Below the pieces are notes generated by a model that was not told the DNA's origin, made no database searches, and saw nothing but the letters and a program-made list of their open reading frames with translations. Shown one piece after another: positions 44,763 to 63,222 of a stretch of 64,000 nt of DNA (positions are counted from its first letter, which is position 1; each line of letters opens with the position of its first letter). The position numbers and the translations under genes are program-made. Source of the stretch: Dictyostelium discoideum. Taxonomy: Eukaryota. The stretch spans positions 4,832,001 through 4,896,000 of the forward strand of contig CM000154.2 in the NCBI GenBank assembly GCA_000004695.1, in the 5' to 3' direction.

Positions 44763-45758
44763 TTATAATAATTTTGTTAAGAGATTGACAGAGTCGGTAA
44801 ACTTATCACTAAAGGTAACTTTTGAAATTGAGTTTTTAACGGATGTACTGATTGAGCCTGATGGTCTATAATCTTTATAGGTCATTAAAATTGTACCTAA
44901 ACCACAAATACATCTCATTATTAAATCTGGATCAGATTCTGTTGAAATTACTAATGACATACATTCAACATACTTATTAACAATCTCTGTATTTATTTGA
45001 TTATATTGAGAATAAACTGAAATACTAATAAAATTTTGAAAATATATATATTTTTTAAAAAAAAAAAAAAAAAAAAAAAGTTAATATGCATGTAAAATTA
45101 ATTGAAAAAAAATGAAATATAAAATGGAAAAAAACTTACTTTAATAAAAATGTTGATAAAGCAGTTGAATAAGATTTGTTTGAATTTGGTGAAAGTTTTT
45201 GATAGATTGATTTAATTGATTCTAAAATTTGTGGATTTGAGAATAATCTTTGAGTTAATAAAGTACGAAGTGGTTCATGACGGAACATATTTGAAAAGAT
45301 TTTCAAAGCCAACATTTGATTATTCATAACGGTGGATTCTTGTACAATTTTAAAGAGAATAACCAATAGATTATATCTTGATGAAGCTCTATTCTCGATG
45401 ACCATAGATTCAAAGGTCTTTGAAGCACCAGGATGTAGAACCATAACACGAATAACATCAAGGATCGTATAAACTTTATCAGCTGGCCAAGTTAACATTT
45501 TGAAAATAACTTTATATTGATTATCACTAAACGATGAGGAATGATAACGTGATGTCTCTCTGAGTGTTGCTAAAATTCCCTTAAACAATGAAATCTCTTG
45601 TTCATCTTCATCCAATGAAATTGATTTTGTATTTGCATTTGATGAAAGTTGATCATTAAATTCTAATGCTTTAACTAATAATGATTCACTATTTGCTTGT
45701 TCAAATAATGTATAAGTTGCTTGTGGAATTAATGATGTTGGTTTAATATTAAAATCTC

Positions 45759-45816
<58 letters not shown>

Positions 45817-47195
45817 GTTATTGTTATTATTATTATTATTATTATTTGAACTATCTGGAATATATCTACTTGGAACTGTAAATGAATCACTTGGTGAACT
45901 ATAGTTATTATTATTATTATTGTTATTTGAACTACCTGGAATATATCTACTTGAACCAGTTAATGGGTCACCTTGATTTGGAGTTGCTTCAAAAGTCATT
46001 GTATCTTGACCAGAATTTTTAATTATGAATTGAGCGACTTGATCAAGGAATTCTTGACCTAAATCATTTTTTAAGATAAAATCTTGAGCGACAGTGTAAG
46101 GATTTTCAGTGAGATCGTAACCAATTTTGTACATTACACCATCACCAACATCAACATCGAAAATATAATCATACTCTCTACCATTGAGTACACCTTTTGA
46201 ACTATTTCTACTGGCAGCATTAGCATCTACAACCTCACCGATTTTAATCCATTTAGCTTCAGATGCACTCCATTGATGAGCTTCAGCGATTTTACCATTC
46301 TTTACAACCTTTAATTCACCATCTTTAGTGCCATCGGCAATCAATGCTTCATTGACGTCTTGTAATTCATTCATTTTAATATCACCAACATTATCAGACA
46401 TAATAGTTTGAGCTGCTAAATTATCTTGATATTGTTGTACCTCCTCTTGAGTTGCAAATCTTTTTTCATTTCTAGTCCAAACATAACCAACACCATCTGC
46501 ACAGCCAGTGATAATATCGCCATTGGGTGAGTATGATAAATCCCAAACTCCAGATGGATGAGTCAAGGTTTGAACATTCTCACCGTCTCTCCAAATACGT
46601 AAAGTTCTATCCTCACCAACTGAAGCAAACCCAAAGTTTGGAATATTGATAACGGCATAAACAAATGAACTATGACCTGACAACTCTTGAACCAATTCAC
46701 CATCGATTGTCCAAATGAAAACGGTACCATCATTACTACAACTTGCAAACCCTAAATCTGGAATAACTGCCAATCCTCTAACACAATCCTTATGTTTTTT
46801 CAATGTCTTTATCACTGAATAATTTCCTTTACCATTTTGTTCCCAAATCTTTATAGTTTTATCTGCACTTGCTGATACTATATTTCCATTTTGTAATCCA
46901 ATAACTGACCAAATTGATGCTTCATGTCCTGATAATGTTGTTAAACATTCACCATTTTCCCAAACTTTAATTGTTCTAAAATAAAAATAAATATATTAAT
47001 ATTAATATTTTATAAATATATAGAATTTAAAATAATAATAATAAAACTTACTTATCCCAACTACCAGAGATAATCAAACCATCATTTGTTACACCAAGTG
47101 TTGAAACTGAATCATTATGTCCTAATAACATTAATGATGGTGCACCACCTTCATTACCTTTTTTACTACTATTATTATTATTATTGTTATTATTG

Positions 47196-49626: not shown

Positions 49627-50645
49627 ATGGAAACACTTGATAGTGTCATTAAAACAGCAACAGACCTAAAACCAAGTGGTTATTATGGTCAAGAAACTGA
49701 AAACAATAATAATACAAATAATAATGATAATCAAGACGAGGAAGAAACAATATCACAAATATTATCTTCAGTACCATCCATTTCAGCATCAAAATTTTTT
49801 TCACCTCCCCAACCACCTCAACCACCCCCACCACAACAACAACACCAACAACAACAAAAACCAATTGAATTAAAATGGAGGCAAACTAAAATACTATTGT
49901 CTTCAGACACAATACCCACTGGTATTAATAATAATATTAGTCCAGATTGTAATATAGAATCAAATACAACATTTAATACATCATCATCTTTACCAGTTCA
50001 ATTAACCAATAATAATGGTTATAATAATAATAATAATAATATAAATATAAACAATAATAATAATAATAACAATAATAATAATAATGAAAAGAATAATAAA
50101 AATAATGAAAAAAATAAAAATTTATCATATCATAGATATAGGAAAGGTAGTTATCAATCAATAATTGAAAAAGCGAAAGCATCAAAAGAAAAGAGAGCAA
50201 ATATTTTACGTGAAATTCAGACAACAGAACAAGCATATATTTCATTTTTAAAAGTTTTAGTTGATGTTTATTTAATGAAAATTAAAGATATTGGTATGTC
50301 TGATCAAGATATTGATGGAATTTTCTCAAATATTGAAGCTATTAAATTAGCCAACGAAGATATTCTATCGAAATTAAGAGAGAAAATTGAATTTCATTCA
50401 TCAAATTCATTTCCTGAAAATGTTGAAATCGCTGATGTTTTCTTAGAATTTGGACCATTCCTTAAAATTTATTCTATATTTGTAAATAATTATTATAATA
50501 GAGCAATTTCAATAATTAAATTAAATACAACAAAAAATAATAAATTTAAACTTTATTTAGCTGTAAGTTAATAATTAAATAATTAAATAAATAAAAAAAA
50601 TAAAAATAATACTAATATTATTTATTTATTTCTTTATTTATTTCT

Positions 50646-50732
<87 letters not shown>

Positions 50733-52580
50733 TTATAGGAATGTAAAAGTTTACCAGCATCAAAAAAATTAGATTTAAATGATTTAATGATTATGCCAAT
50801 TCAAAGATTAGTTAGATATGTATTATTATTAGAAGAATTAATACAACATACACCAGAATCAACAGAACCAAATGAACATAAAAAATTAATTGAAGCAAAG
50901 AATGTAATGAAAGATGTAGCATCATTTGTAAATCAATCAACAGTTGATAAACAAGGTCCATTAGAAACTTTAACAAGAGTTCAACAAACTTTAGGTCCAA
51001 AAACTGGTAATTTAATTCAACCACATAGAAGATTTATTAAATCTGGTGATTTAGTTAGAGTTGTACAAGTCCAAGATGATGAAAATGAAAATGATAATAA
51101 CAATAATCTAAATAATCCAAATGAAAATAAACCAAATAAGAATACTGATGATGGTGATGAAATTATTGAAAAAAGAATTATTAATATTTATTTATTTAAT
51201 GATTTAATAATTTATGCAATTAATAATAAATTTTGGAGAAAGATTTATTTAGTTGAAGTTTGGATTAGAAGTAAAGAGATTAAAGGATTACAAAATGTTT
51301 TTGAAATTTATAGTAAATCATTATCATGTATATTTCAAAATCAATTCTCTAGTGATAGTAGTAGTAGTTTTCAAGAGTGGTCATCTTTAATTCAATCTAC
51401 AATTAATAAATTATTAATTGATGATTCTGATGCAAAAGAAAAAAGATTTAATCTTTTAGAACAAGATGATCAAATTCAAAAAGATTTCACTTTTGAAGAG
51501 AGACAATTCTATTTCGAATCAATGAATAATCCTCAAAATCCTCAATTTAATGATATAAAATTATTTAAAGATTCATTAATTGAAGATGGTATTGTTGAAG
51601 ATAGGAAAAAGAAAATTGAAAGTTTAATTACATTTCGACCAAATATTCCTATTTTAGATCAACAACAAAGTAATAATAATAATAGTAATAATAATAATGT
51701 AGAAAATTGTAGAAGTAGTATTGGTAGTAGTAGTGGTGAAATTAATTTAAATAATAATATTGAACAGAATGGATTTTCTGATAGTTCAGATACAGGTGTT
51801 GCATTATCAGATAATTCAGATAATGAAGAAGCGAAAAAGAAAAGAAATACGTTAAAGAAAAGAATGGTATCTCAAAATAATTTAAATTATAATTCAAATA
51901 AAACCAGTGGTGTAACATTATTGACTCAACAATTAACTGGTAAAAATAAATCGTCGTCGTTGTTATCACATATTGCATTAACTAGACAGAATATAGTTAT
52001 GCAAGGTTATCTTACAAAAATTGGCGAAGTTGTAAAAAATTGGAAGAGAAGGTGGTTCATTTTTGAGAGTAATTATCTTTTCTATTTAAAGAATGAGCAA
52101 TCCTCAAAGGTGTTGGGTATAATACCACTAATTGGCTCAAAAATTGAAAATATCGATCAGACTTCATTCAACATTTCAACTACTTCAAGAACCTATTTAA
52201 TCATTGCTGATTCTCAAAATGAGCTTTCAAAATGGACAAAATCAATATTAGATTTTCATAATTCAAGAGATAATTTCATTAACAATATTAAACAACAATA
52301 TTCAAGTAGTAGTTCTTTAAAATTAATAAATAATCAACAACAACATCAAACTCAACAACAAACTCAACAACAAATTCAAAAAAGATTATCTTGGTTATCT
52401 GCTGCTTTACCAAATATTAATTCAAGTTTTAAAAAACCACCCCAAAATGATAGATCAAAAACAATTGCAAATTTTAGATTCACTCAAATCTTAAATGAAA
52501 ATAATAATATCCCACCAGATTCCTCTTTATCTAAAAGTGTTGATGCTTTAAGCTTAAGTAGTAATACTACCACCACTACA

Positions 52581-52618
<38 letters not shown>

Positions 52619-52694
52619 CGACTATGAAGATGATTGTGATAGTTTATCTTCAGAGGAAGAGTTTGATGATGAAGAAGAAGAATTTGATAGATAA
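49627..52694 (+). CDS. Rho-family guanine nucleotide exchange factor (DH-PH); exons 49627-50562 and 50739-52694
   Basis: Donor GCT|GTAAGT at 50563 and acceptor TATTATAG|GAA at 50738 join ORFs 49627 and 50787 in phase 0. The DH domain spans the junction (...ISFLKVLVDVYLMKIKD...LEFGPFLKIYSIFVNNY.../ECKSLPASKKLDLNDLMIMPIQRLVRYVLLLEELIQHT). The PH domain is QGYLTKIGEVVKNWKRRWFIFESNYLFYLK...WTKSI. The intron is mostly an (ATTT)n array. Confidence 0.8.
50620..50734. repeat. (ATTT)n tetranucleotide microsatellite, about 27 units, inside the RhoGEF intron
   Basis: tatttatttattt... run at 50620-50734. Confidence 0.95.
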
Positions 52695-54163: not shown

Positions 54164-54352
54164 TTACCAAAAATCTTTTCCTTTATTTTTTTTCATGATT
54201 TGGTCATGAATTAAATCCTCTTCACTATCACCTTCATCATTATACGATGCCTCTTCATAATCATCATCATCATAATAATCCTCATAATCACTGAGTGTAA
54301 TTGGTCTTTCTTTTGATTGTTGTTGTTGTTGATTTTTATCATTACCATCAGT

Positions 54353-54391
<39 letters not shown>

Positions 54392-57222
54392 TTGTTCACC
54401 ATTTGTATTTTCATCTTGATTATCATTATCATCATCATCATCATCATCACCACTATCATCATCACTAATTAAAGAATTTCTATAATTAATAAGATTTGTA
54501 ATAGTTTGATCGTTTTTTAAATCCTCTTGTAATTTTAATTGTTTTTCCATTGTATCTTTTAATTTTGAAAGATGAGTCGAAGTTTTATCTTTTTTTGGTT
54601 TTAAAGTTGTAAAAGTGATTTTACCAACTTGAACTTGTTGTTGTTCTTCTTTTTCAATTTGTAATCTAACTTGTTCAATTTCTTGTTCTGAAAGAATTGG
54701 AAATTGTGGTTCCAACCATTGTTCATGAATTGAAGATGTGATAAAGACTGGTTCATTATCGATGATTTCATTTGTTGATTTAATTTGACCACCATAAAGA
54801 TTATAGATTCTAATTTTCTTTGGATCATATTCAACCAAATCTGAATCAACAGGAATTAAAAGTTTATTCAATTGATTAACGATTGATTCTTTAAATTCAT
54901 TGAATTTACTATTAACAAATAATTTAAATAATTGTTTCTTTGAGCCATTTTTACAAACTGTAACAGATAATGAACGAACTGGTTGTGAATTTTTAGAATG
55001 ACCACCAGTACTATTTGACATTAATGGTTTTTGATGATGATGATAAAAACTTTGAGTTAATAATTTCTTTAATGTTTTTTGGCAAGATTCTAAAGCATCT
55101 GCTTTTTCTTTTACACCAATGGTATTTGAATTGTAAGCATGTAAAAAGAAGACAGCATTTTGTAAAAGATCGAAATGTCTTTTATTTGTGTATGTTCTTT
55201 CAGTGATGTTTGAAATTAATGATTGATAGATATGTTTAATGATTGGGTCATTACTATGGAATTTACCCTTGAGAAACTCCTCAATGAATGACGAATCTAC
55301 ACTTGAATTATTGCTTGAAATTGTGTCTAAAAAGATTCTAGATTTATTTTTTCTATTCTCATCAATCATTGAACCTGTACAAGTACCATGATCGGAATAA
55401 TCTTTACCACAACTATAACAAAATTGATAACGACATCTTGAACAAGTCATATGATTACAACCCCATGATTTTTCAACTGGGAATTTACATCTACCACAGA
55501 TGGTGGTATTTTCAACAATCCAACGATAACTAAATAGATCACTCTCGTTATGAACTGGTTTATTGCATGGTACTGGCCAATGATAAGAATTTTTCTTACA
55601 AAATAAACAAATTACATGACCGTTGCAACTAATGAATGGGGAATATTTTAAAGCCAATGTTTTTCTCTTTAAATCTGTAGCGACCAATCTAGTACATCCT
55701 TCATATTGACATGGATGAACCGTATTATTTGAATTATAAGAAATATCTTTAATTAAATTTGATGAAATTCCTCTTGATTTACATAATTCAATTGATAATG
55801 ATTCAATAGTAACTTCATCAATTGATTTATTTAAACAATCGGCAGTTAAACAACCAATTGAAATGGAACCACCACTACCATCATTAATTGATGTTGTAAA
55901 ATATTGACTCATACAACCAATACAATAAGAATGACCACAAATTAATTCAATCATTTCATTAACTTCATATTCACAATAACAAATTGAACATTCTTTTTCA
56001 AATTGACTTGATTGGTCAACCAATGTGATTTGTGGTGTTTTAAATTTATACAATTCAATATCCTTTGATTTATGTGGATAACTATTTGTTCTAACACTTT
56101 GACAATCTAATGATATCACTGGTTTAACATCCCAACCATTTTTAAATAATAATTTTTTTGCCACTGAATGTGGAATATTGAAATGATTTGAAACCATTTC
56201 ACAACGTTGATAAATTTCTTGATAAAACTTATTCGTAGTTTCAGATTTCAATAATTCATGTTCATTAAATAAATTTACACAAGTGTCTAAAATTGAACCA
56301 CCACTTCTACTTAACATACAATTATCATAATATTGTTGAATCAATGCAACAATTGCCACGATATCATTTTTATCTTTTTTAAATTGAGTATCAATAATTT
56401 CTTTTAATTCATTCTCTCTGTTTTTTAAACTTATCTTTTCATAATCATTATTCTCATTTAATTCTATAATAATTTCATATGAATAATCGAGTTGGACTGT
56501 TGTTGGTTTTTCAATTAAATAAAACCAAATTCTTGAATCTTTTTCATTATTTGAAATTAAAACTTTACAACGGTATGGATAAGATTCACCAATTAAAACT
56601 TTATTTTTCAAGGTTAATAATTGTTTAATTATACAATTATAAAACTTATTCTTATTCTCTGATACGTCATTGAATAATGAAAGATATTGATTTTCAGATT
56701 CGAGTTTATTTAATTTCTCTTGATATTCTTGTGATGTTGTTAATAGTTTTTTCTCTTCAACATCATCTGGATCAACATCAGAAATTGCACTAATTGATAC
56801 AATTAATATTTGATTATTATATGTATTATCTAAACTCTTAATTCTACGATTACCATTTTCATTAGTTGTTCTAACTCTAATATGTGATCTATCTGATGTT
56901 GTTAATTTAAATTTATTAATTAACAATCCTAAAAATCCTGAAAATGTAAGATTTGTTGGAATTACCAAAACAATACTTTCTTTTTCATTTTCATTCTTTT
57001 TAAAATAAATAAAAAAAAAAAAAAATAATAATAAAAAAAAAATAATAGTAATAAAAAAAAAAAATTGGAAGTTAGGAATTTGATTTCTTTTTTATTTTTT
57101 TTTTTTTTTTTAATTTTATTTTTTTATATGTTTACCTTTTCATAAAAAATTGTGAATCTTTTTCTAAGGTCAGGTGTATTAACTAAAACATATAATGATT
57201 CTTCATTATTTTTATTTGACAT
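54164..57222 (-). CDS. RBR-type (RING1-IBR-RING2) E3 ubiquitin ligase, Ariadne-like catalytic module with long N-terminal region; exons 57222-57136 and 56995-54164
   Basis: RING1 is CSICYCEY...CGHSYCIGCMSQYF, followed by an IBR Cys/His cluster and RING2 CGRCKFPVEKSWGCNHMTCSRCRYQFCYSCGKDYSDHG with the catalytic Cys context. ORF 54164-56968 starts at TTG and is open upstream. An 87-nt first exon MSNKNNEESLYVLVNTPDLRKRFTIFYEK (donor AAG|GTAAAC at 57135) joins acceptor TTTTAAAAAG|AAT at 56996 in phase 0. The C-terminus is acidic D/E/N-rich. Confidence 0.8.
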
Positions 57223-57904: not shown

Positions 57905-59053
57905 ATGTCAAAACCAAATAAAGCTAAATTACAACAACAAAAGAAAGGTAAAAAATCAACAACAACAGCAACAACCACAAAGAAAGAATTAACATCAGAA
58001 GAATATATACAACAAGGTGAAAAATATGCAAGTGAATATCATTTCGATAAAGCATTAAGTAGTTTTGAAAATGCATTGAAATTAGATCCAATCAATACAT
58101 TAGTGATGGATACAATCGGAGAGATATTAGTAGAGAATGGTGATATAGAGAACGCTAAAACTTATTTCTTAAAATCAATTAAAACCGATCCAGAAGATTC
58201 ACCATCCAAATACATGAATTTAGGGCAATTGGTCGGTGGTGATGATGCATTGAATTGTTATAGAAAAGGCATACAAATTATGGAACGTGAATTAAAACAA
58301 CTAATTAAAGAACAAGGTTCAAAATATAATGATTTACAACATATTCCAAGACCATTAAAATCATCATCACCAGTTGGTGAGGATGACGATGGCGAGGATA
58401 CAGTTTACGAATCAGATGAAGATGATCCAATAATTATATTAAAACAACAATTATGTTCAGCATTATGCTCAATTTCAGAATTATATTTAACTGATCAATG
58501 TTTTGATGACGATGCAGAGGATCAATGTGAGAGCAATTTAAAGAGGGCTATTGGATACTCACCAAACTCACCAGAACCTTATAGTTTAATGGCATCAATG
58601 AAGATTAGTCAAGTAAAGAATCAAGAGGCAATTGAATATTTGAATAAATCATACCAACTTTGGGAGCATTCTGATATTGATGATCGTCCAGAATTTGATT
58701 ATCGTTTCAACATTTCATTATTATTCATAGAATTAAAAGAGAATAGAACTGCTGTCGACATTTTGGAACAATTAGTAAATGAACAAGATAATATAGCTGA
58801 ATTATGGTACACTTTAGGTGTTGTCTATAATAATCTAAATGAACCATTATCAGCTCAAGAATGTTTAATCACCTCAAAAGAATTATTAAAAATCGCTGCT
58901 CCACAAGGTAGAGATGAAGAATTGGAACATTTAACAAATACTTTATTAAAAAAGGTTGAAATTGATGTTTCTAAATTATCTCCTGAAGAAATTGAAGCTT
59001 TGAATAATGATAATGATGAAGATGAAGCAGAACAAGAAGAAATGGATGAATAA
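57905..59053 (+). CDS. TPR-repeat protein with acidic tail, Acl4-like (possible ribosomal protein L4 assembly chaperone)
   Basis: Single 382-aa ORF. TPR-like helical pairs (EYIQQGEKYASEYHFDKALSSFENALKLDP..., AELWYTLGVVYNNLNEPLSAQECL), an internal acidic loop and a D/E-rich C-terminus match the Acl4/UPF0661 layout. The family call is tentative. Confidence 0.6.
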   Translation: MSKPNKAKLQQQKKGKKSTTTATTTKKELTSEEYIQQGEKYASEYHFDKALSSFENALKLDPINTLVMDTIGEILVENGDIENAKTYFLKSIKTDPEDSPSKYMNLGQLVGGDDALNCYRKGIQIMERELKQLIKEQGSKYNDLQHIPRPLKSSSPVGEDDDGEDTVYESDEDDPIIILKQQLCSALCSISELYLTDQCFDDDAEDQCESNLKRAIGYSPNSPEPYSLMASMKISQVKNQEAIEYLNKSYQLWEHSDIDDRPEFDYRFNISLLFIELKENRTAVDILEQLVNEQDNIAELWYTLGVVYNNLNEPLSAQECLITSKELLKIAAPQGRDEELEHLTNTLLKKVEIDVSKLSPEEIEALNNDNDEDEAEQEEMDE

Positions 59054-59177
59054 AAAAAAAAAGTAAAAAAAATAAAAATAAAAATAAAAAATTTAAAAAT
59101 AATTTATTAATTTATTTATTTATTTCACACCCTCTTTCGTGTTTTTGGGTTTTTTTTAAAAAAAGTGTCAAAACTTA

Positions 59178-59667
59178 TTATTTTGTTGGTGGTGGTGGTT
59201 TTCTTAAAGTTCTTTCATATTTCTTTTTACTTTGAGATAGTTGTTTACTATAAAGATATAGTAAACTATTTAAATCGATTTTATCTGGTATTTGAATGAA
59301 TCTAATATTCCTACTTTGGATTAATATCTCTTGAACATGTTCATCTCTTTTATTCTTGTATCTTGTATTTGTTAATTTTGCATCAGAAAGTTCAATACTA
59401 GTATTAAGAGTGAATGAGTGAGTGAGTATATATTAGTATTGATTTTAATATTGGGTATAAATAAAAAACATACTTTAAATATGCATCGACATTAGTAATT
59501 GTACCATAGATTTCACAATTTGATCTTAATTGTATTGTAATTTGTGTTCCTCTTAATGCTGTGAATACACATAAAAGTGATTGAAATTCTTTAGCTATAA
59601 ATTTTTTTTTGCTATTATTGGTATTGTTTTTTAAATCTTTTTCATCTTTTTTATATGTTATTGACAT
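59178..59667 (-). CDS. Sm-fold protein, SmD1 paralogue of the LSm10 type (U7 snRNP-specific); exons 59667-59474 and 59397-59178 (137 aa)
   Basis: Donor AA|GTATGT (59473) and acceptor TACTAG|T (59398) give ...LLCVFTALRGTQITIQLRSNCEIYGTITNVDAYLN-IELSDAKLTNTRYKNKRDEHVQEILIQSRNIRFIQIPDKIDLNSLL.... The Sm1 (GTITNVD..MN) and Sm2 (IRFIQIPD) motifs are co-linear with SmD1 and LSm10. Unlike canonical SmD1 it has a 27-residue N-terminal extension and no C-terminal RG repeats. Those are the features that separate LSm10 from SmD1. Confidence 0.6.
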
Positions 59668-61257
59668 TGATTTGACATAAACACATAATCATACGCATGA
59701 TGATTTTTTTTTTTTTTTTAATTTTTTGTTTTTTTTTTTATTGACTGTTTTTTTGACAATTTTTTATTTTTTTTTATTATTTTTAATTAAAAATTTTATT
59801 TTTAGAATTTAATTATTTTTTATATTCTTTTTTTTGTAATTTTTTATTTATTTAGAAGAAAAATGGGAAGGGAATAAATTTTCTATTAAAAAAAAAATAA
59901 AAAAAAAAATAAAAAAAACTGATTGGGTTGGAATAGTTATTACCTTTTTTTTATTTTTTATTTTTTATTTATAATTTTTTAATTTTTAAATCAAAAAAAT
60001 AAATGAATTAAATCTGGATTGAAAAAATAAAATCAATTTTTATTTCTTTTTTAATTTTTTTAAATATAAAATATAATCCCTTTCATTGTTTAAAATATAG
60101 AAAAAAAAAAAAAAAAACATCACATAATTCAGCCCCCGAATAATCTAGATTATTAATTCCAAAAATAGGTCTGTAAATTAACAAATAATTTTTTCCAAAT
60201 TTGAAAAAAAAAAACAAAAAATTAATAGATAATAATTATGAAAAATAAAAAAGGTTAAATGGGTTTAAATATTTTTTTTTTAATTTTATTTTTGATCTTA
60301 TAAAAAAAAAAAAAAAAATTGGGAATTTATTTGGTATAAATAGAGCCAATTTTTTTTTTTTTTTTTTCTTCATTTTTATTAACCAACAAACAAAGAAATT
60401 GTAGCTTTCTAAAAAAAATTGAGTAATTCTTAAGGTTGGCCGGATATAAAAAATTCATTATCTAAGTGGTGAAAAGTAATTATGATGCACTAATCGCCTT
60501 TATTTTTACATTTATTTTTTATTTTCTATTCAGCTCCACTTTAAAAAAATAATTTAGTTTATTTATCTGTTTTTTAATTATTTATATTTCCAATTGAAAA
60601 AAAAAAAAAAAACCAAAAAAAAATTAAAAAAAAACCTACTTAGACATGGAGGGGATAAAAGAAATAAAGGAGTTAATATATTGAAAAATATCTTTCTTTT
60701 GGAAGGGGTTTTATTAATTCCTTTATTTCATTTTCTTCTTCATGTCTATGTAGTTTTTTTATTATTTTTTCAAATGGAAAAATAAATAATTAAAAAATAT
60801 TGATTTACAAATCTCTGTTGAATCAGATTCTAAAGAAAAAAAAATAATAATCCAAAATATTAAAAAAATATCAAATATAAAATATATGAGATAACAATCA
60901 TTATAAACAGTTACACCCGAATATACCAGCATTTATAAATATAATAAAGTAAAAGAAAGATCAAAACATATAATTTCATTTGAAAAAGATAGAAATAAAA
61001 AATTAGACAAAAAAGAAACAATATAAACACCAGATGATAATAATAATAAAAAAAAGGAAAAAGAGTAAATAGAGGAAAAAGAGTAAATAGAGCAATTAGA
61101 AAGATATAAAGAAACATTTGTTTATAATTTCTTTATTTCTTTCTTCTTCTATTTCCTCTTTTTCCTTACTTTCCTCTTTTTCCTTTTTTTATTATTATTA
61201 TCATCATCTGGTCCATAGATTCACATCATAAGTTTTTAATGTTTGTTTAATATTTTA

Positions 61258-62199: not shown

Positions 62200-63222
62200 T
62201 TATTTTGGAATTATAGAAATTATATAATCAGCTAAATTTGAATCATTTGATTCTTTCCAAGATTGATAATAAATTCCTATGGAATCAATAAATGATGGTT
62301 GTGTAGGATGATAACCTAATAATGTTTCTGCTTTTTTAAAAGATAAACGTTGATTAAATTGCATACCAGTTAAGAATAAATCAGATTCTGGTGCTTCAAC
62401 ATATTGAATTGAAATTGGTTTATTATTATTATTATTTAAATTTTTATTATCAAAGTCAATTCCAATTGATTTAAAATGATACTTATAAATTAACTTCAAT
62501 AAATCATCAACTCTTTCTGTATAAGAATTTGCAATGAAAATTTCACCTCTAATCTTTGAAGCATTTTTAATTAAAAGTAAATAAAATTTACATAAATCAA
62601 AAATATGAATAAAACCTTGATAAAATCCATTTGGATATTTTTTATTATTACCATAGGTTTTAATTATATGTTTTTCAGCAGCAGCACTATTATTATCATC
62701 ATTATTGAATGATTGATTTATACATTCAAAATAGTAACTACAATATGAACAATTTAAACCATAAATCATAGTTGGTATGATAATTATTGCGTTAATTCTT
62801 CTATAGGTGTCTTCAATTTCTTTAATTGCTTTCCAACCATCTGTATTTAATCTTGAATTTGATTTTTCATCTATTAAATTCTCATTATCACCAAATGAAA
62901 ATGAAGCATTTGTGAAAATGATTGTTAAATTATCACCTTTGATTTCTTTTAATTTAACCAAATAATTTAAAACTAATTTTGGTGTTTCTGGATTTCTTGA
63001 TGAAATCGATTCGATAACTATATCAATCTCTGTTTCAACTAAATTAAACCATTTACTTTCATCACTAACATCGCAAATAATTGGTATAATTTCATTTCTT
63101 TTCATTTTTAATCTATCATTTTCATCAATTGACATTCCATAAACTTTATAACCTTCTCTTCTTAATGCACAACCAACATTAAATCCAATGAACCCAACTC
63201 CTAATATTAAAACTGATACCAT
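62200..63222 (-). CDS. NAD(P)-binding Rossmann-fold protein, NAD-dependent epimerase/dehydratase (NmrA-like) family, 340 aa
   Basis: Single ORF. The N-terminal dinucleotide-binding motif is VLILGVGFIGFNVGCAL (GxGxxG), followed by an acidic residue. No poly-N tracts. Confidence 0.7.
   Translation of the reverse strand: MVSVLILGVGFIGFNVGCALRREGYKVYGMSIDENDRLKMKRNEIIPIICDVSDESKWFNLVETEIDIVIESISSRNPETPKLVLNYLVKLKEIKGDNLTIIFTNASFSFGDNENLIDEKSNSRLNTDGWKAIKEIEDTYRRINAIIIIPTMIYGLNCSYCSYYFECINQSFNNDDNNSAAAEKHIIKTYGNNKKYPNGFYQGFIHIFDLCKFYLLLIKNASKIRGEIFIANSYTERVDDLLKLIYKYHFKSIGIDFDNKNLNNNNNKPISIQYVEAPESDLFLTGMQFNQRLSFKKAETLLGYHPTQPSFIDSIGIYYQSWKESNDSNLADYIISIIPK

Follow-up and report, generated by a model that had tools for sequence, protein, structure and literature searches.

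The DDB_G0291015 locus

The window analysed here is a 64,000-nt stretch of the Dictyostelium discoideum genome, with a G+C content of ~22%. Its minus strand carries the gene DDB_G0291015, whose coding sequence starts with an ATG at position 59667 and closes with a TAA stop ending at 59178, yielding a product of 137 aa. The start codon is the first in-frame ATG, and an in-frame TGA is found 8 codons upstream. The coding sequence is arranged as follows:

59474..59667, minus strand: coding exon 1, 194 nt, comprising codons 1-64 and two bases of codon 65, and encoding the N-terminal extension, alpha-1 and the larger part of Sm1
59398..59473, minus strand: spliceosomal intron, 76 nt, GTATGT...TAG (GT..AG), phase 2, splitting the N65 codon, which specifies the invariant asparagine of Sm1
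59178..59397, minus strand: coding exon 2 including the TAA stop, 220 nt, encoding the remainder of Sm1, the variable loop L4, Sm2 and the conserved C-terminal helix

An initial annotation, made from the bare sequence, had described the gene as split by a 76-nt intron, and the gene model bears this out: the intron runs from 59473 to 59398 with GT..AG borders, the spliced product is 100% identical to the NCBI entry 'hypothetical protein DDB_G0291015 [Dictyostelium discoideum AX4]', and the gene model in the public record extends over exactly these 490 bp. Without removal of the intron, a stop closes the frame 87 codons in and excludes the Sm2 motif, while the alignment of dictyostelid orthologues is gap-free over the splice junction. 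The two strings that had been quoted as its Sm1 and Sm2 motifs, GTITNVDAYLNIELSDAKLT and SRNIRFIQIPD, were both found in the spliced product; since GTITNVDAYLNIELSDAKLT crosses the splice junction, removal of the intron is required to obtain it. DDB_G0291015 was not named in the literature searched.

A gene for a TPR-repeat protein faces DDB_G0291015 from the plus strand. It is part of the context of the locus and falls outside the function of an LSm10 protein. The neighbouring gene and the spacer contain the following features:

57905..59053, plus strand: TPR-repeat protein gene, intronless, 382 aa, with matches to several TPR Pfam families
59054..59177, no strand assigned: convergent intergenic spacer, 124 bp between stop codons, containing the AATAAA signals of both genes
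59071, 59077 and 59083 (59071-59088), plus strand: AATAAA signals of the TPR gene
59124-59103, minus strand: AATAAA signals of the LSm gene

The convergence of the two genes with 124 bp between their stop codons, as proposed earlier, is confirmed by these coordinates, with the TPR gene ending at 59053 on the plus strand and the stop codon of the LSm gene ending at 59178 on the minus strand. Within the spacer, the two sets of poly(A) signals face each other at distances of 15-50 bp. With cleavage 10-30 nt past each AATAAA, the two transcripts would overlap by zero to a few tens of bases, so that the suggested overlap of their 3' UTRs is plausible. The convergent TPR neighbour is kept in Polysphondylium violaceum, with a 222-bp gap, and is not found in Acytostelium. 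The LSm-TPR pair was also considered as a functional unit; it was treated as residual synteny instead, since Acytostelium is without the pairing.

Sm domain and flanking regions of the protein

The product of DDB_G0291015 was divided into four regions:

59593..59667, minus strand: N-terminal extension, residues 1-25, low-complexity, basic and predicted disordered, forming ~25 residues ahead of alpha-1
59385..59556, minus strand: Sm1 motif, residues 38-69, LRGTQITIQLRSNCEIYGTITNVDAYLNIELS, interrupted by the intron and forming strands beta1-beta3 in the AF2 model
59283..59336, minus strand: Sm2 motif region, residues 86-103, VQEILIQSRNIRFIQIPD, aligned to named LSm10, SmD1 and LSm2 proteins
59205..59273, minus strand: C-terminal helix, residues 107-129, LNSLLYLYSKQLSQSKKKYERTL, with pLDDT values of 80-88, conserved in dictyostelids

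The Pfam family LSM (PF01423) matched residues 37-100 over its gathering score, with an E-value of 7e-11 that is far beyond chance. The AF2 model (mean pLDDT 79) predicts a canonical Sm fold composed of alpha1 and five strands, followed by an extra C-terminal helix at residues 107-129. The Pfam match and the predicted fold, together with the presence of both quoted strings in the spliced product, support the earlier description of co-linear Sm1 and Sm2 motifs. In the family alignment, residues G55, D61 and N65 of Sm1 are nearly invariant, and R97 and P102 of the Sm2 region are invariant. The Sm2 motif shows the LSm10-type pattern [GS]-[RK]-N-[IV]-R-[YF]-[IV]-x-I-P-D.

At the N-terminal end, residues 1-18 have pLDDT values below 50 and are modelled as disordered, and the alignment of dictyostelid sequences showed that the extension is poorly conserved apart from a basic patch. 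The C-terminal helix includes a K-x-Y-x-R motif, and a similar motif is present in many protist relatives. The tail of the protein is ...KKKYERTLRKPPPPTK, which reads RKPPPPTK; no RG repeat tail was found in the 137-aa product, whose sole RG dipeptide is located at residues 39-40.

Characters shared with LSm10, SmD1 and LSm2

Signature residues were compared in an alignment that drew on four NCBI-named LSm10 proteins, human LSm10, SmD1 and LSm2. Human LSm10 (Q969L4; chain C of PDB 6V4X, 9NH5 and 9N96) was the best match in the profile, single-sequence and fold searches. LSm10 and the dictyostelid proteins both have a basic extension ahead of alpha-1, followed by a helix with a common 'SLxC[LV]' motif, which reads 'SL[IV]CLLQ' in LSm10 and 'SLLCVF' in the dictyostelids. 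The beta1 strand contains 'QLR' in dictyostelids and 'LR' in LSm10, as compared with 'ELK' in SmD1 and LSm2, and the Sm1 motif of both LSm10 and DDB_G0291015 contains 'NVDA[FY]xNI'. The Sm2 motif is 'QSRNIRFIQIPD' in dictyostelids and 'xGRN[IV]RY[IV]HIPD' in LSm10, whereas it is 'RGNNIRYFILPD' in SmD1 and 'RGSxVRYVQL' in LSm2. Both LSm10 and DDB_G0291015 are without the Arg of the canonical Sm2 'RG', both fit x-[GS]-R-N-[IV]-R-[YF]-[IV]-x-I-P-D, and neither has an RG tail.

Several differences from LSm10 were also observed. The identity between DDB_G0291015 and human LSm10 is only ~25-27%, and the dictyostelid Sm2 has a Ser where LSm10 has a Gly, a substitution also present in the relative P0135. 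The N-terminal extension of DDB_G0291015 is longer than that of human LSm10 and is of low complexity, and the C-terminal helix of the dictyostelids has the ending K-K-Y-E-R-T-x-R-K-P, to which vertebrate LSm10 offers only a weak match.

SmD1, the second-best match of DDB_G0291015, has the same fold, co-linear Sm1 and Sm2 motifs and the same predicted ring position. Unlike DDB_G0291015, SmD1 begins directly with alpha-1 and has an RG repeat at its C-terminus as well as the 'ELKNG', 'RGNNIRY' and 'LPD' motifs; over the Sm domain the two are ~30% identical, and DDB_G0291015 is without the RGNNIRY[FY]ILPD Sm2 motif. LSm2 has in common with DDB_G0291015 the 'VDxYLNIxL' stretch in Sm1 and the lack of an RG tail, but it starts at alpha1, without an N-terminal extension, and its Sm2 motif is 'IRGSxVRYVQL'. 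The initial annotation had regarded the extension at the N-terminus and the lack of an RG tail as the features that distinguish LSm10 from SmD1. Both are indeed present in this protein, although taken alone they are weak markers of LSm10, because LSm2 is also without an RG tail.

Profile and sequence comparisons

When the single D. discoideum sequence was compared with all PDB chains, human LSm10 scored 42.3 bits, SmD1 40.5 bits and LSm2 36.6 bits. Judged by the D. discoideum sequence alone, the outcome is close to a tie, with LSm10 ahead of SmD1 by ~2 bits, and a profile of orthologues is needed. Human LSm10 was the best single-sequence match for all nine dictyostelid orthologues compared (9/9).

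A hidden Markov model (HMM) built from eight dictyostelid orthologues gave 970 matches at E<1e-3 among 1.84 billion (1.84e9) representative proteins. Among the top 150 matches, 139 of the 140 newly retrieved proteins scored best to human LSm10, the majority of them by 30-60 bits (usually 60-100 bits to LSm10 vs ~30 to SmD1 or LSm2), and no canonical SmD1 was present. Eight vertebrate LSm10 proteins, which had been retrieved independently with human LSm10, recurred in this top list, and the named top matches were NCBI entries for 'U7 snRNA-associated Sm-like protein LSm10' from Anneissia (crinoid), Pollicipes (barnacle), Branchiostoma (amphioxus) and Galendromus (mite).

The dictyostelid profile was also compared with all PDB chains, where LSm10 (6v4x_C) reached 63 bits (E = 2e-16), a result that was reproduced locally. 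The best SmD1 score was 43.1 bits, with 41.2 for S. pombe, 40.8 for C. elegans and 35 for yeast, so that every SmD1 in the PDB (human, S. pombe, C. elegans, alga and yeast) was at or below 43.1 bits, and LSm2 was at or below 41.0 bits. The scores of SmD1 from human, S. pombe and C. elegans differed by no more than 3 bits and lay 20 bits under that of LSm10.

For the reverse comparison, an HMM was built independently of the query from vertebrate-only LSm10 sequences retrieved with human LSm10; the word-index search with human LSm10 gave vertebrates only among the best 120 of 450 matches. This model assigned 57.8 bits to the D. discoideum protein (P0001) and 46-66 bits to the dictyostelids, as compared with 47.4 bits for human SmD1 and 41.3 bits for LSm2. 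Human SmD1 was outscored by seven of the eight dictyostelid proteins, with the orthologue P0010 just under it, and LSm2 was outscored by all eight; the margin of the D. discoideum protein over SmD1 was ~10 bits. A broader LSm10 HMM gave 94-108 bits for the dictyostelids vs 68 and 66 bits for the paralogues, from a set that is biased towards the query because its members were chosen by similarity to it. The reciprocal comparison with SmD1 and LSm10 came out on the side of LSm10 in both directions.

Tree and fold comparison

A neighbour-joining tree was built from 152 sequences with 200 bootstraps. Its references included yeast and S. pombe sequences, and the Sm domains of the human LSm10 and SmD1 references were confirmed by the alignments printed in the PDB searches. 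The SmD1 and LSm2 references were split from all other sequences, dictyostelids included, in 141 of the 200 bootstraps, and the dictyostelids grouped exclusively with SmD1 and LSm2 in two of the 200. The dictyostelid proteins are among the long-branched members of the tree, close to the point of attachment of SmD1 and LSm2. The top Foldseek match of the AF2 model was LSm10 in the human U7 snRNP (9nh5_C), which gave the longest alignment and the highest query TM-score; the E-values for LSm10 and SmD1 differ by a factor of ~3 only, and the fold search does not separate the two.

The forward and reverse profiles, the PDB profile search, the single-sequence scores, the signature residues and the neighbour-joining tree uphold the earlier assignment of this gene as LSm10-type and not SmD1 itself. 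By these sequence comparisons, DDB_G0291015 is a member of the LSm10 family and is neither an SmD1 nor an LSm2, and its Sm1 and Sm2 motifs are intact.

Distribution of the family and a conserved intron

Orthologues of DDB_G0291015 were found in all four dictyostelid groups, including Dictyostelium species, D. purpureum, Polysphondylium violaceum, Acytostelium subglobosum and Cavenderia, with a strongly conserved core and C-terminal helix. A wider-family profile that included divergent relatives, run over 8000 candidates, retrieved, among the matches listed, proteins of the volvocine and related algae Edaphochlamys, Astrephomene, four Volvox species, Pleodorina, Chlamydomonas incerta and C. schloesseri, annotated as 'hypothetical' or 'Sm domain-containing'. 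A relative in another volvocine alga, Tetrabaena socialis, is already annotated as LSm10. Further relatives among the matches listed come from the brown alga Pylaiella and from a pelagophyte, and a cluster look-up added Coleochaete scutata, the chlorarachniophyte Norrisiella sphaerica and marine protist transcriptomes. Neither fungi nor land plants were represented among the named matches listed, an absence that is suggestive only, as ~25 non-dictyostelid proteins were named.

The intron of DDB_G0291015, in phase 2 within the Sm1 Asn codon, was found at the same position and phase in P. violaceum, A. subglobosum and the green alga Edaphochlamys debaryana. A matching donor, ATGAA|GTGAGT, is present in Pylaiella littoralis, where the annotated model apparently contains a spurious extra exon. 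Three supergroups have this intron in common. The intron was absent from the three animal LSm10 genes examined, namely those of amphioxus, with introns elsewhere, and of a shark and a crinoid, whose coding regions are intronless. Most conserved introns in these gene families are unique to one Sm or LSm gene (Veretnik et al., PMC2650416). The shared intron therefore points to orthology of the protist genes and to a considerable age. Since the intron is missing from the animal LSm10 genes examined, it ties the protist genes to each other and not to animal LSm10. On the evidence of these matches, the LSm10-type family reaches the green algae, stramenopiles and Rhizaria, with an ancient intron common to some of the lineages.

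Histone 3' processing and other Sm genes

In the animal U7 particle, the places of SmD1 and SmD2 in the seven-membered Sm ring are taken by LSm10 and LSm11. The ring forms on the U7 snRNA Sm site AAUUUGUCUAG, and both LSm proteins touch the cleavage module composed of symplekin, CPSF100 and CPSF73; only two proteins are specific to the U7 Sm ring, LSm10 among them (10.1101/2023.08.19.553944). U7-dependent cleavage of histone pre-mRNA is routinely called metazoan, and U7 snRNA has been described in animals only (PMC5054213; 10.1101/2023.08.19.553944). Outside animals, the classic examples of histone genes without polyadenylation are those of Chlamydomonas and Volvox, and the SLBP homologue of D. 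discoideum is DDB0169192 (PMC5054213). According to a passage of PMC8600027 that cites Davila Lopez & Samuelsson 2008, the histone transcripts of D. discoideum use the stem-loop route, polyadenylation or both.

Physarum polycephalum, likewise an amoebozoan, has been reported from sequence to encode PpLSm10, PpLSm11 and two SLBPs and to contain histone stem-loop and HDE signals, and a search for its U7 snRNA was unsuccessful, with none reported outside animals (PMC8600027). That paper makes no mention of DDB_G0291015, and the Physarum proteins are likened to it here by their description and not by sequence.

Within the window, Rfam at gathering thresholds detected no RNA family over the whole 64 kb, and accordingly no U7 and no histone stem-loop. 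The window was also searched by tblastn with fragments of human H2A, H2B, H3, H4, the SLBP RNA-binding domain, LSm2 and LSm11, none of which gave a match, and with a human SmD1 fragment, which matched the DDB_G0291015 locus only, and weakly.

A 'regular' (NCBI-annotated) SmD1 (gi|66816135) and LSm2 (gi|66812912) are listed for D. discoideum by Veretnik et al. (PMC2650416, Table 1). This indicates that DDB_G0291015 coexists with separate SmD1 and LSm2 genes, which are known here from the annotation table and not from sequence. The idea that DDB_G0291015 is the sole SmD1-like gene of the organism, under which it would be SmD1 itself, is contradicted by this table, because an SmD1 is listed there while DDB_G0291015 is annotated as 'hypothetical'.

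A possible U7-type particle in Dictyostelium

DDB_G0291015 is probably an LSm10 orthologue that acts in a U7-type particle. We infer such a U7 role in Dictyostelium from its family membership together with the reported SLBP homologue, the histone stem-loop signals and the LSm10 and LSm11 proteins of Physarum. In the proposed mechanism, Dictyostelium LSm10 would pair with an LSm11-like protein and also with SmB, D3, E, F and G; the resulting Sm ring would close around the non-canonical Sm site of a putative U7-like small RNA. The particle could then base-pair 3' of the stem-loop of an SLBP-bound histone pre-mRNA and recruit the CPSF73 cleavage module, as in animals.

It is also conceivable, if unlikely, that DDB_G0291015 is a true LSm10-family protein that in Dictyostelium, and perhaps in other protists, works outside a U7 snRNP, in an alternative Sm ring on another small RNA or in a role without histone 3' processing, in which case the U7 role would be a later animal specialisation. 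The description of U7 snRNA in animals only, with none found in the Physarum search, is consistent with this, as are the weak match of the protist C-terminal K-x-Y-x-R helix in vertebrate LSm10 and the passage of PMC8600027 in which D. discoideum histone transcripts may use stem-loop processing, polyadenylation or both. However, U7 RNAs are short and fast-evolving, as a passage of PMC5054213 states, and because of this a failed similarity search is weak evidence of their absence. Moreover, the named matches of the family fall where non-polyadenylated histone genes or SLBP have been reported, in volvocine algae and Dictyostelium, and Physarum is a further case, with LSm11 as well as LSm10; fungi and land plants contribute none of the named matches listed.

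Trypanosomes have snRNA-specific Sm variants. By analogy, DDB_G0291015 might be a fast-evolving, lineage-specific duplicate of SmD1 or LSm2, made similar to LSm10 by convergence or by long branches and serving a specialised spliceosomal snRNP. The close single-sequence scores and the long branches of the dictyostelids near the attachment of SmD1 and LSm2 would fit this origin, which is nevertheless quite improbable: the orthologue profile favours LSm10 by 20 bits over all solved SmD1 and LSm2 proteins, canonical SmD1 does not appear in the top 150 of 1.84e9 proteins, several motif-level characters are common to LSm10 and the dictyostelids, and the exclusive grouping with SmD1 and LSm2 was recovered in two of 200 bootstraps. 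In addition, the close relatives in green and brown algae that have the intron in common imply that the gene is not lineage-specific. Hardly credible is the proposal that this gene is a divergent SmD1 and the only one in the organism; its SmD1-like architecture would agree with that, but a regular SmD1 and LSm2 are listed in Table 1 of PMC2650416, the protein has neither the RG tail nor the RGNNIRY[FY]ILPD motif, the identity is ~30%, and SmD1 scores 20 bits below LSm10.

The distribution of the family and the shared intron argue that the U7-type Sm ring is older than animals. The wider proposal, that LSm10 is not an animal invention and that protist lineages including Dictyostelium carry a U7-like guide RNA for histone mRNA 3' cleavage, stands at about even chances. 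If it is true, tagging DDB_G0291015 would offer direct access to the first U7 snRNA from outside animals, and D. discoideum, being genetically tractable, would provide an experimental handle on U7 outside animals. No new kind of system is involved, as LSm10 and LSm11 have already been claimed for Physarum and the Tetrabaena relative is already labelled LSm10. The comparison also improves on the current labels of DDB_G0291015 and its orthologues, 'hypothetical' or 'Sm domain-containing'.

Upstream ORFs and 3' flank of the LSm10 gene

Four ATGs, all out of frame with LSm10, directly precede the main start codon of DDB_G0291015 (ATG at 59667, minus strand):

59678-59698, minus strand, upstream ATGs at 59698, 59692, 59686 and 59678

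Translation from these ATGs yields a pair of short upstream ORFs that encode MRMIMCLCQINVNNI and MSNQCQ; each ends in a stop codon, and both overlap the LSm10 main start codon. If they are located in the 5' UTR, these ORFs would reduce LSm10 translation, which would be consistent with a report that animal LSm10 is far less abundant than SmD1 (10.1101/2023.08.19.553944).

In the 124 bp spacer that separates LSm10 from the convergent TPR gene (59054-59177), an island relatively rich in G+C, CACACCCTCTTTCGTGTTTTTGGG (59124-59152), lies between both sets of poly(A) signals, and the remainder of the spacer is composed of A/T only. The island can form a 4-bp hairpin at most.

Gene structure in other species

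A second intron was found in the genes of two other dictyostelids:

L002 5001-5595, Polysphondylium violaceum gene with second intron
L003 5001-5563, Acytostelium subglobosum gene with second intron

In both species it is a phase-0 intron that separates Y from S in the C-terminal helix ('LY|SK'), and it has been lost in D. discoideum.

Two gene models of relatives are probably faulty. One of them is that of P0286, the family protein of Pylaiella littoralis:

L005 1001-4708, Pylaiella littoralis gene for P0286

As annotated, P0286 carries a 27-residue insert, GAVCAIAALQCLTRRRRAGPRHIWVLS, immediately C-terminal to the Sm1 'NMN', a site where its relatives have 'NMNLKMVDV'. The family consensus is regained if the 2561/2562 donor is joined without an intervening exon to the acceptor that precedes 'C TTG TCT ATG GTG GAT' (~3313). 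An error in the gene model probably accounts for the extra exon. The other is P0133, the Cavenderia fasciculata orthologue DFA_00406, which is annotated at 251 aa and in which the family profile matches two separate segments; its gene model is probably fused or mis-spliced.

Other genes in and beside the window

Further coding regions were as follows:

45136-46815, minus strand, ORF with WD40, PFU and PUL domains
49627-52694, plus strand, two neighbouring ORFs with the first half of a RhoGEF domain, its second half and then a PH domain
54164-56968, minus strand, RING and IBR domains in one large ORF
62200-63222, minus strand, 340-aa protein upstream of LSm10, weak NAD-dependent epimerase match
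Past the window end on the public contig, just beyond the epimerase-like protein, 2205-aa kinesin with PH domain

The RING and IBR domains identify the large ORF as an RBR-type E3 ubiquitin ligase, and the neighbouring ORF pair most likely represents two exons of a single RhoGEF-PH gene. The domain combination of the 45136-46815 ORF is the architecture of the ubiquitin-binding protein PLAA/Doa1/Ufd3.
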